Below are positions 41,801 to 44,800 of a DNA stretch of 48,763 nucleotides, piece after piece. A program made the position numbers. The stretch is from the sequence record NC_049952.1, one strand, 5' to 3'. This stretch comes from Escherichia phage 2B8. How positions within the stretch are numbered: position 1 is the stretch's first letter; the number at the start of each line of letters is the position of its first letter.

Positions 41801-44800
41801 GGCGCGGACACGTTCATCTTTGGTCATACGCCAGCAGTGAAACCACTTAAATTTGCCAACCAGATGTATATCGATACTGGGGCAGTGTTCTGCGGAAATC
41901 TCACATTGATTCAGGTACAGGGAGAAGGCGCATGAGACTCGAAAGTGTAGCTAAATTTCATTCGCCAAAAAGCCCGATGATGAGCGACTCACCACGGGCT
42001 ACGGCTTCTGACTCTCTTTCCGGTACTGATGTGATGGCTGCTATGGGGATGGCGCAATCACAAGCCGGATTCGGAATGGCTGCATTCTGCGGTAAGCATG
42101 AACTCAGCCAGAACGACAAACAAAAGGCTATCAACTATCTGATGCAATTTGCACACAAGGTATCGGGGAAATACCGTGGTGTGGCAAAGCTCGAAGGAAA
42201 TACTAAGGCAAAGGTACTGCAAGTGCTCGCAACATTCGCTTATGCGGATTATTGCCGTAGTGCCGCGACGCCGGGCGCAAGATGCAGAGATTGCCACGGT
42301 ACAGGCCGTGCGGTTGATATATCAAAAACAGAGCAATTGGGGAGAGTTGCTGAGAAAGAGTGCGGAAGATGTAAAGGCGTCGGTTATTCAAGAATGCCAG
42401 CAAGCGCCGCATATCGCGCTGTGACGATGCTAATCCCAAACCTTACCCAACCCACCTGGTCACGCACTGTTAAGCCGCTGTATGACGCTCTGGTTGTGCA
42501 ATGCCACAAGGAAGAGTCAATCGCAGACAACATTTTGAATGCGATCACACGTTAGCGCCATGATTGCCACGGATGGCAACATATTAACGGCATAATATTG
42601 ACTTTTTGAATAACTTTGGGGAAACTTGACACCAATAATGGGCGTTTTTTACATGTCATTGATGAGTCTCAATAACCTGCCGCCGAGTAGTTTTTATGCT
42701 CTGAATTGTATTTGTGTAGTAAACATGCTGACTGCAATGTAATAGAGTTTTTTTAGCCTGTAACCTCTTGACGGCATTGAATTGCTTTTGTTATGAGTTG
42801 TAAGCCAATGTTATCATCTTGTATTGGGGTGGTTATGAAGGATGGTGCGCTGCTCAGGAGTTCTTCACTTTTTATTGCCTACATGGGATGCCTTGGATGG
42901 GGGAGTGCTTATTTCTATGGATGGGGTACTTCTTTTTACTACGGCTTCCCATGGTGGATTGTAGGTGCAGGTGTTGATGATGTTGCCAGAAGTTTATTTT
43001 TTGCAGTTATCGTCATTGCTATATTTCTTATCGGTTGGGGTATTGGTGTTGTATTCTTTTTCGCAGTGAAAAGAAAACATTCTATGCAAGAGCTAAATGT
43101 ATTTCGCCTTTATTTTGCTGTGGAATTATTGTTTGTGCCGGCAATTATTGAGTTTTCTATATTGAGACAGAAGATTCAGTTACCTCTTTTGCTACTGTCA
43201 GCAGCGATTGCGCTGGCAGTTACAATTTCGATAAGATCTTATGGGCGATTTTTATCGGTATCATGCTTCTATGGTAAGCCATTTATAAAAAAACATTTTT
43301 TTGAAGTTGTGATGGTTGCTTTTGTGGCATATTTCTGGCTCTTCTCATTTCTGACAGGATATTACAAACCTCAGTTTAAGAAAGAATATGAAATGATTAA
43401 TTATAATGATGCTTGGTATTATGTTCTTGCTCGTTATGATAATTGTCTGGTTTTGTCTACTTCTTTTAATGCAGGTAGTAAGAGGTTTGTCATTTATCAA
43501 TCAGCACAAGATAAGAATCTTCAGGTTGATATTGTAAGGACCAGAATTTAATTGGCTGCATAAATAATATTTTAAGTTGCAAGTTGGCTATTCGTAAGAA
43601 TAGAACCTTAGGCATGCAGAATGCGTTTTCTGAACATTGTTTTATAAACTGTGTCTGCTTGCTGTTGTGAGCCTGCTTTTAGTGATGGTGATGATGGATT
43701 TCACCAGCAGGATAATGTTGGTACTGACTGATGGCGCTCTGGTCTGCGGCATTGTGGTATTGCTGTGGCCGATGATGAAAAAACAGAATGAATAATGCTT
43801 GACTTTTTTGTTTACTGTTTATTAAAAAATCAACCGCATGGTGAATCCTCCTTGGAGGGGCTAAATGATCGAGTTTTAAGGGCACGTAGCGAGTTCTGTT
43901 TGATCATTGCAGAACTTAGCGGGAGGCGCTATGCGTACATCACTAATGTTATTCCTTCTATCATTTTCCTTGTGAGTTCTGGCTGCGCATGGCGCGGCCT
44001 TTTTTTTATGACCTGCCACTGGCAGATGGTCATCCTGTGATTTGATTCCGCTTCCGGCTTTTTAACTCTGTTCCTCTACACGGGAGAAATTCGATGTCGA
44101 TTAAACATTACGATGTTGTCAGGGCGGCGTCGCCGTCAGACCTTGCGGAAAAGCTGACACACAAACTGAAAGAGGGCTGGCAGCCATACGGCGGACCGGT
44201 TGCCATTACGCCGTACACACTGATGCAGGCGGTGGCTATTGAAGGAGAGCCACAGGTCGGCCCTTCATCTGAGCCGGATTGGTACTACGTCATCGTACTG
44301 GCCGGGCAGTCCAATGCCATGGCTTACGGTGAAGGGCTTCCGCTGCCGGATTCATACGATGCTCCGGATCCGCGCATTAAACAGCTGGCGCGCCGCAGTA
44401 CAGTGACGCCGGGCGGGGCTGCCTGCAGATATAACGATATTATTCCGGCTGACCACTGTCTGCATGATGTGCAGGATATGAGTACGCTGAATCATCCGAA
44501 GGCAGACCTGAGCAAAGGGCAGTACGGCTGTGTCGGCCAGGGCTTACATATTGCCAAACGTCTGCTGCCGTATATCCCCAAAAATGCCGGGATTCTTCTT
44601 GTTCCCTGCTCCCGTGGTGGTTCGGCATTCACCCAGGGCGCGGAGGGGACATTCAGCGAGTCCACGGGGGCCAGTCAGGATTCGGCACGCTGGGGTGTGG
44701 GCAAGCCCTTATATCAGGACCTGATTTCCCGCACAAAAGCGGCATTGCAGAAAAATCCCAAAAACGTTCTGCTGGCCGTCTGCTGGATGCAGGGTGAGTT

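Follow-up and report, generated by a model that had tools for sequence, protein, structure and literature searches.

A probable lysogenic-conversion cassette of tfpB, a DUF3927 gene and the PasD small RNA in the toxin slot of Escherichia phage 2B8

Shiga toxin (Stx) phages carry stx in a slot between the antiterminator gene Q and a NanS-p-type esterase gene. The Stx1 phage BP-4795 arranges this region as Q - stxA1 - stxB1 - ORF42 - yjhS/NanS-p - S - R, with a yjhS homologous to the esterase of the DNA analysed here, the 48,763-nucleotide (nt) sequence NC_049952.1 of Escherichia phage 2B8 (hereafter the window). The interval 42556..44010 of the window is supported as accessory cargo, or a moron, in this same Q-to-NanS-p slot; both the gene order of BP-4795 and its homologous esterase bear out the stx-equivalent position proposed in an initial annotation of the sequence. 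The cassette consists of three separable, independently distributed elements, namely a gene for a TfpB-family membrane protein, a gene for a small DUF3927 protein and the small RNA (sRNA) PasD. The initial annotation had recognized cargo in the stx slot, but described a two-gene cassette and overlooked PasD. Taken as a whole, a mosaic lysogenic-conversion cassette of these three elements, expressed by the routes proposed below, is with good confidence the best explanation of the locus.

The closest cassettes are those of phage 434 (97.8% identity) and of the prophages of enteropathogenic E. coli (EPEC) E2348/69 (98.6%). In phage 434 (OL657226, CPT_434_68 to _70), the three elements have the same arrangement, and the esterase and lysis genes behind them are shared as well; its annotation labels the elements, in order, as 'putative membrane protein', as 'TciB' and as a second 'putative membrane protein' plus a terminator. 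The EPEC copies are E2348C_0686, E2348C_0687 and pasD2 in prophage PP2, and E2348C_1012 and pasD1 in prophage PP4. At a coverage of at least 80% at one place, the cassette is found in 682 of 5426 complete E. coli genomes, mostly EPEC and enterohaemorrhagic E. coli (EHEC). It is already catalogued rather than new, and it is neither a new toxin nor a defence system. In this regard, no toxin subunit domain of the AB5 type (Stx; heat-labile enterotoxin, LT) appeared in the Pfam scan of the cassette, PADLOC gave 0 matches of the cassette proteins to catalogued defence proteins, and Pfam, NCBIfam and PADLOC scans of both proteins returned nothing beyond DUF3927.

A moron, in Hendrix's sense, is an extra gene unit of atypical composition with its own promoter and terminator. 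Presence or absence at a module boundary is seen here, as mEp234 shares Q/pR' and then continues directly with the holin gene, without the cassette. The base composition also differs from that of the flanking genes: at 34-40% GC, between about 50% in Q and 57-59% in the esterase, the cassette forms a low-GC island. As for its own signals, the terminator is strong, the promoters are motifs backed by conservation, and the evidence for expression in lysogens comes from the EPEC copies.

Three elements between Q and the esterase

The occupant of the toxin slot can be regarded as settled: the slot contains a widespread cassette, of whose products the best understood is a regulatory RNA tying the prophage to host and virulence mRNAs. 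This product, PasD (172 nt, 43836..44007, + strand), is the homologue of EHEC EcOnc13 and is recognized by near-identity to the EPEC RNAs PasD1 and PasD2. Over 172-173 nt the window differs from PasD1 by one substitution and one 1-nt deletion, neither of which disrupts the seed UGUGAG or the stem plus U8; the seed, the terminator and the flanks (Q upstream; esterase or holin downstream) are those of PasD1 and PasD2. PasD1 was mapped at NC_011601 1060260..1060432 (+, 173 nt) and called an EcOnc13 homologue (Pearl Mizrahi et al., 2021, PMC8550237, Table S6), EcOnc13 itself being attributed there to the EHEC work of Tree et al. (2014). In EPEC, PasD is Northern-validated and Hfq-dependent, and a ligation-and-sequencing assay of RNA interactions (RIL-seq) yielded chimeras with core and virulence mRNAs, among them aceE, uspA, tir, cesF and bfpB (PMC8550237). 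The evidence for expression, Hfq binding and targets comes from the EPEC copies.

The predicted PasD fold comprises a long 5' stem domain, an unpaired stretch that holds the published seed, and the terminator followed by U8. The terminator hairpin (43981..43999 plus T8) has a folding energy of -16.8 kcal/mol (z -3.6), with 0 of 200 shuffles as stable, and it is the first strong stop on the + strand after the late promoter pR'. The initial annotation thus judged the strength of the hairpin at 43981..44007 rightly; beyond closing the cassette, the hairpin forms the 3' terminus of PasD. Two open reading frame (ORF) calls over this stretch, one of 62 amino acids (aa) annotated as 'putative membrane protein' in phage 434 and one of 81 aa in mechanical ORF lists, are probably spurious. 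The 62-aa ORF (5162..5350 of the extracted 434 locus, equivalent to window 43852..44040) runs through the PasD terminator, and the stretch reads as non-coding because the EPEC PP4 copy differs from those of the window and phage 434 by a 1-nt indel that breaks this ORF.

Upstream of PasD lies the gene for a 52-aa 'TciB-like' small membrane protein with two hydrophobic segments (43637..43795, + strand; Pfam PF13064 or DUF3927, PHROG 1470). The PF13064 match scores 53.5 bits against a gathering cut-off of 25 and spans profile positions 7-49 of 53, the match to PHROG 1470 'TciB-like' has an E-value of 3.7e-17, and phage 434 annotates the same small protein as TciB. The 34-aa hydrophobic peptide of the initial annotation proves to be a product of an internal ATG start, the Pfam match pointing to the 52-aa ORF as the real one. 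Its start, TTG 43637, is that of the Prokaryotic Genome Annotation Pipeline (PGAP) and of the phage 434 annotation. DUF3927 relatives occur in only seven phage records and, outside 434, the tblastn match covers only residues 21-51, so that the N-terminal segment and the TTG start are uncertain.

The first gene of the cassette (42835..43551, + strand) encodes a 238-aa inner-membrane protein of the TfpB family (PF27470), preceded by the Shine-Dalgarno (SD)-like GGGGTGG at 42826..42832 and matching PHROG 1521 with an E-value of 2e-151. All 106 homologues found, up to 97-98% identical, carry a precomputed PF27470 assignment; the direct Pfam scan gave no match for the membrane protein, the release used being older than PF27470. 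Full-length relatives measure 236-240 aa, and an alignment of 24 homologues at 45-93% identity contains 43 invariant columns. Hydropathy delineates four strongly hydrophobic segments plus an aromatic/Gly-rich N-terminal helix, and an AlphaFold model built with distant members added to the alignment (predicted local distance difference test, pLDDT, 81; predicted template modelling score, pTM, 0.75) predicts helices at residues 6-36, 47-79, 89-111, 116-136 and 155-181 and a five-strand C-terminal beta domain at 187-232. By the positive-inside rule, the loops 80-88 and 137-154 would be cytoplasmic and the beta domain periplasmic. The protein displays the family architecture, that is, about 240 aa, an N-terminal AY.YGWG...YYG.PWW, ARSL at the start of helix 2 and a C-terminal beta domain with YY.L. 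Homologue lengths, invariant columns, hydropathy and model all agree with the polytopic membrane protein of about 238 aa that the initial annotation had placed at 42835..43551. Longer starts at 42793 (252 aa) and at 42808 (247 aa, the choice of PGAP and of the phage 434 annotation) were rejected because the family has 236-240 aa, the upstream sequence diverges and the orthologues align at the ATG with its purine-rich SD; ATG 42793 falls within a conserved -10 motif.

As a separate observation, positions 42977..42987 in the tfpB coding region (AUGAUGUUGCC) correspond to the site of chimeras between E2348C_0686 and PasA in EPEC RIL-seq (57 chimeras, odds ratio 2.4, p 0.02; PMC8550237), a weak hint that a PasA-family sRNA pairs with tfpB mRNA.

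Transcription of the cassette in lysogens

Expression of near-identical cassette copies was taken from EPEC lysogens under the activating condition, as DESeq2 baseMean (PMC8550237, Table S2). For tfpB the values are 226 (PP2) and 147 (PP4) and for DUF3927 37, both corresponding to about 0.2-0.3 counts/nt, whereas PasD reaches 11017 and 8652 (50-64 counts/nt). Q stands at 69 and 6 (0.01-0.1 counts/nt), the esterase at 102 and the holin at 3.5 and 5.4 (about 0.02 counts/nt). Per nt, tfpB and DUF3927 are expressed 12-19 times as highly as the holin in uninduced lysogens, and the cassette is transcribed in uninduced EPEC lysogens well above the lysis genes. The similar levels of tfpB and DUF3927, together with the lack of any terminator in the 85-nt gap between them in our scan, indicate that the two genes are probably co-transcribed. 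PasD, on the other hand, is about 200-fold more abundant per nt than the upstream mRNA, which argues for a promoter of its own. A promoter-like site is predicted at 43799..43829 (+ strand), with -35 TTGACT at 43799..43804 and the A/T-rich -10 region TATTAAAAAA at 43820..43829; it is identical in EPEC PP4 and phage 434 and closely precedes the 5' end published for PasD1.

The late promoter pR' with a qut-like element is predicted at 42598..42640 (+ strand), with -35 TTGACT at 42598..42603, a 17-nt spacer and -10 GAAACT at 42621..42626. Transcription would start near 42633, and a -10-like AATAAT is present in the initial transcribed region. The pR' region is about 92% identical to the annotated pR'/qut of HK97, HK022 and mEp-type phages, and its alignment with the annotated pR'/qut of mEp234, together with the -35 element, supports the location at about 42598 given in the initial annotation. 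The same annotation had described the path from pR' to the membrane gene as free of terminators, and this stands: the terminator scan found no competent intrinsic terminator between pR' and 42793, only a decayed tR'-type relic (42675..42695, + strand; -2.2 kcal/mol, 4 bp, U5, z +0.8, no better than shuffles). Its counterpart in phage 434, ACCCGCTGCCGAGTGGGTTTTTTTT, is a strong terminator (-12.5 kcal/mol, 9 bp, U8, z -4.1) that precedes the cassette. It is because the tR'-type terminator is mutated relative to that of phage 434 that a terminator-free route leads from pR' to the membrane gene. Phage 434 and EPEC PP2 combine a Q82-type Q and an intact terminator ahead of the cassette with a NanS-p esterase behind it, in contrast to the lambda-type Q and terminator relic of the window, while PP4 has the lambda-type Q/pR' junction exactly as in the window. 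Over the whole region, 7 terminator-like sites were detected against 4.5 +/- 2.0 expected by chance. A weak candidate at 43657..43672 inside the DUF3927 ORF (6 bp, 3 GC pairs, poor T-run) was rejected.

A candidate promoter of tfpB itself is found at 42768..42797 (+ strand), with -35 TTGACG at 42768..42773, TG at 42789..42790 and -10 TATGAG at 42792..42797, and the consensus scan gives an overlapping alternative, TTGTTA-18-TGtTATCAT, at 42788..42817 (+ strand). The motif TTGAC(G/T)-N15-TGT(T/A)ATG(A/T)(G/A) is kept upstream of four orthologues at 56-60% identity whose flanks have otherwise diverged. Two of these four, on an LT plasmid of enterotoxigenic E. coli (ETEC) and in an iro islet from extraintestinal pathogenic E. 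coli (ExPEC), lie in places without Q/pR'. The conservation of the motif where pR' is absent argues for a dedicated tfpB promoter, and the -10 mapped for STM1630, taken by gene order as the Salmonella orthologue, is further evidence in this direction. Boxes for CII binding (TTGY-N6-TTGY), as annotated in phage 434, were also considered, and were rejected as a bare pattern match; in the window box upstream of tfpB (42788..42801), 10 nt separate the end of the second tetrad from the -10 candidate TATCAT at 42812, and in pRE the spacing from box to -10 is roughly 15 nt.

These results bear on the model of the initial annotation, in which the two ORFs form a single operon driven by constitutive pR' and the hairpin at 43981 acts as tR'. 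This model has in its favor that no competent terminator separates pR' from the membrane gene, that no strong stop on the + strand comes before the PasD terminator, and that EPEC PP4, with the same arrangement, shows 0.01 counts/nt for Q and 0.2 for tfpB. It is nonetheless doubtful, as in phage 434 an identical cassette follows a -12.5 kcal/mol terminator and in EPEC PP2 it likewise follows a terminator, the orthologues without pR' keep the promoter motif, PasD is in some 200-fold excess, and the -10 of pR' is degraded to GAAACT. Read-through from pR' is possible in this phage, but it is probably neither the main nor a necessary route for tfpB, for which an own promoter is favored. What remains of the proposal that the cassette is transcribed from pR' in lysogens is thus the terminator-free path; dependence on pR' is made improbable by the conserved motif and the terminator-shielded copies.

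The findings allow us to propose the following course of events. In the lysogen, tfpB and DUF3927 would be transcribed weakly from a sigma-70 promoter of their own immediately upstream, and in this phage constitutive pR' transcripts may add to this, the original tR' having decayed. PasD would be made from its own strong promoter, end at the 'strong hairpin' and pair with host and virulence mRNAs through the UGUGAG seed. As the original tR' has decayed, the PasD terminator would be the first real stop for pR'; it may shield the NanS-p and lysis genes from all three upstream promoters, so that in such phages the terminator of an sRNA would at the same time keep the lysis genes silenced. After induction, by analogy with lambda, Q-modified RNA polymerase from pR' would pass the PasD terminator into the lysis and morphogenesis genes.

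Distribution and possible role of TfpB

To our knowledge, the TfpB family has been named for decades without a function being assigned to it; the name presumably comes from the pilin inversion region of Moraxella bovis. The family is small, with 72 representatives at E <= 1e-3 among 1.84 billion proteins, and beyond Enterobacterales it extends to Moraxella, Neisseriaceae and Pasteurellaceae. A name-based literature search on TciB, TfpB, DUF3927 and EcOnc13 retrieved nothing relevant. The structure-based search proposed in the initial annotation was likewise unproductive, with no significant match to the TfpB model in BFVD or the PDB. The initial annotation had also stated that clear homology of the membrane protein to a known late-region gene would speak against cargo; here the matches to 434 gp68, PHROG 1521 and Pfam TfpB constitute such homology only formally, none of them being functionally known. 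Across the family alignment there is no conserved His/Asp/Glu/Cys catalytic set, which makes an enzyme unlikely.

Outside the cassette, TfpB is found without DUF3927 or PasD behind antiterminators of at least three further kinds, PF06530 (Yersinia), PF06323 and DUF1133 (E. coli), and in 434 it follows a Q82-like Q; in Citrobacter freundii it lies at a prophage tail end, after the tail-fibre genes. It also stands alone in hundreds of plasmids and genomes. Salmonella has an intact lone copy between sseJ and steB, and Citrobacter rodentium one beside lpxR at that same site of the chromosome; on ETEC plasmids an intact lone copy lies 870 bp from eltAB and close to STb, in Klebsiella close to STb, and in ExPEC beside a glycosyltransferase and an ABC exporter read as iroB/iroC. 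Shigella plasmids contribute 106 records, pCP301 (pINV) included. In Glaesserella parasuis the gene is flanked by a TsaB-like gene on one side and cdtCBA on the other, and a family-profile search placed it in Moraxella beside piv, with a type IV pilin gene on either side. The homologue of M. lacunata NCTC10359 is split into ORFs of 195 and 68 aa (5001..5784 of the extracted locus), as opposed to a single 261-aa ORF in M. bovis; a frameshifting duplication in M. lacunata tfpB has reportedly been described, and the split ORFs fit it. No STnc100/PasD match (Rfam) and no DUF3927 was found beside the lone TfpB copies.

The recurrence of TfpB beside toxin and effector loci could be due to chance hitch-hiking on prophage remnants or to a functional link. 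An obligate linkage to toxins was rejected, as the neighbors in Aggregatibacter, Actinobacillus, Conchiformibius and Pasteurella canis are housekeeping or unassigned genes (FtsK, a teichoic-acid-type glycosyltransferase, UbiX). Since the lone copies stay intact after prophage decay and no catalytic set is conserved, we infer that TfpB may be an envelope protein without enzymatic activity, useful to the host and dispensable for lytic growth. Within this frame, a modulator of an envelope machine or appendage is our tentative suggestion. In a rough split of the roles, superinfection exclusion, its chief competitor, takes a smaller share, and the rest falls to other or unknown functions. A more specific version, in which TfpB is a non-enzymatic inner-membrane factor that helps mucosal pathogens to export, assemble or release secreted virulence products, is an improbable idea drawn from the loci where the gene occurs (the stx slot, eltAB, STb, cdtCBA, sseJ/steB, pINV and the Moraxella pilin inversion segment); if it were true, the placement of TfpB in the toxin slot would be functional and not accidental.

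Several other roles can be weighed against the same distribution. P22 SieA, T4 Imm and HK97 gp15 are models for a membrane block of phage DNA entry, and TfpB, with or without DUF3927, would resemble them as a superinfection-exclusion or anti-phage protein of the inner membrane, being prophage-borne, expressed in EPEC lysogens, polytopic and devoid of a catalytic signature; moreover, the name of P1 tciABC refers to ter-type phage inhibition. We consider such a role rather unlikely, because PADLOC was negative, neither sequence nor fold resembles known proteins, and the retention of TfpB in Salmonella lineages, on Shigella pINV and in housekeeping neighborhoods of Pasteurellaceae and Neisseriaceae fits a host function at least equally. 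The position just after Q/pR' and ahead of holin, endolysin and spanins, and the nature of both products as small membrane proteins, would also suit late lytic accessories acting in holin timing or envelope breakdown under strong Q-dependent expression. There is little to recommend this explanation, however, given the excess of both genes over the holin in uninduced EPEC, their absence from related lambdoid phages such as mEp234, the occurrence of TfpB in only 1 of 50,697 phage records and the persistence of lone copies where all lysis genes are gone. The option of a membrane toxin and immunity pair, raised in the initial annotation, would cast DUF3927 as the small hydrophobic toxin, and a small two-segment hydrophobic peptide does adjoin a larger membrane protein here. 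Nevertheless, the two genes are unlinked outside this E. coli cassette, the two proteins occurring apart in most other contexts, and the lone TfpB copies on so many plasmids and genomes make such a pair highly improbable.

Several points weigh against the lysogenic-conversion cassette as we propose it. The promoters were assigned from motifs, and a scan for sigma-70 sites yields fewer of them than shuffled sequences do (3 vs 6.6). The size of the pR' contribution is uncertain owing to the weak -10 (GAAACT, compared with TAAATT in lambda), and Rho-dependent termination may occur within the leader of about 200 nt. The two EPEC tfpB copies encode an identical protein (WP_001302581.1), so that reads could not be assigned to the terminator-preceded or the terminator-free copy. 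In addition, the only phenotype is the hypermotility seen on deletion of STM1630, the probable Salmonella orthologue, identified by gene order alone (STM1629 being steB). Literature reports describe for STM1630 its own mapped start site and -10, silenced by two single-nucleotide polymorphisms in ST313, and for its deletion no macrophage replication defect and hypermotility in a screen, with the caveat from a follow-up motility paper that polar effects of the cassette insertion may account for some of the screen's hits.

Neighboring features and comparison with known systems

In size (48.8 kb) and content, the window looks like a whole lambda-like genome, and its opening at 1..240, GACCTCGCGGGTTTTCGCTATTTATGAAAATTTTCC..., is presumably a lambda-type left cohesive end, giving the cos orientation. 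The late regulatory region runs in the order NinI-like phosphatase, Q, cargo interval, NanS-p-type esterase, class II holin (46363) and endolysin (46569). Q, context and not cargo, is a lambda-type antiterminator of 207 aa (41932..42555, + strand; Pfam PF03589 Antiterm, E 8e-56). The downstream border of the slot is the NanS-p-type sialate O-acetylesterase gene (44094..46071, + strand), with the Pfam domains DUF1737, SASA and DUF6645. An exact 127-bp tandem duplication at 44929..45183 (Tandem Repeats Finder: 2.0 copies, 100% match) shifts its frame and splits it into ORFs 44094..45065 and 45112..46071, unlike the counterpart in phage 434 and PP2; the split esterase is either a true pseudogene or an assembly artefact.

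Between esterase and holin, a second known sRNA gene of the PasC/PasA family is located at about 46072..46150 on the minus strand, antisense to the late operon. It contains GTACATCTACCCGTTTTAGCCAGCG, the exact complement of the published PasC Northern probe, followed by a terminator with its stem at 46108..46081 plus a T-run. Further downstream, a strong terminator-like hairpin (46281..46307, + strand; 11 bp, 7 GC, followed by TTTTTGTTTT) lies about 55 nt before the holin start and, as judged from its sequence, would form a second barrier to unmodified transcription ahead of the lysis genes.

Beyond the slot, PasD relates to a family already described in Rfam. The match to STnc100 (RF02076) at 43806..44010 is full-length (model 1-206) with an E-value of about 1e-6, but its 38.3 bits fall below the gathering threshold of 47, as do the 37.7 bits of EPEC PasD1; PasD is thus a relative of STnc100 by full-length alignment and not a member by Rfam's own threshold. 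In line with this, PasD1 and PasD2 have been presented as structural relatives of STnc100 with different seed regions, for which common ancestry was argued, and as adjoining Q, LpxR and sialate-esterase genes (Zhu, Shabalina and Storz, 2026, preprint). The small DUF3927 protein, by its place in PHROG 1470 'TciB-like', resembles a product of tciABC of phage P1, the origin of the 'TciB' label, but no TciA (TerB-like) or TciC partner is present in the cassette.

TfpB is intact on main virulence elements of EPEC/EHEC, ETEC and Shigella, and also in Salmonella, C. rodentium, Moraxella and Pasteurellaceae, which makes it a reasonable study target; the residual interest of the locus resides in this pathogen-associated family without a fold match. 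Other E. coli prophages have the order Q - methylase - TfpB - LpxR - NanS-p in the slot, and the position from methylase to LpxR/NanS-p is one that we take to be the precise stx2 slot. In comparison with the slot cargo of the Stx and LT-II type, the phage 2B8 cassette shares the slot and the atypical GC content, but is made up of two membrane proteins and an sRNA, with no toxin domain.

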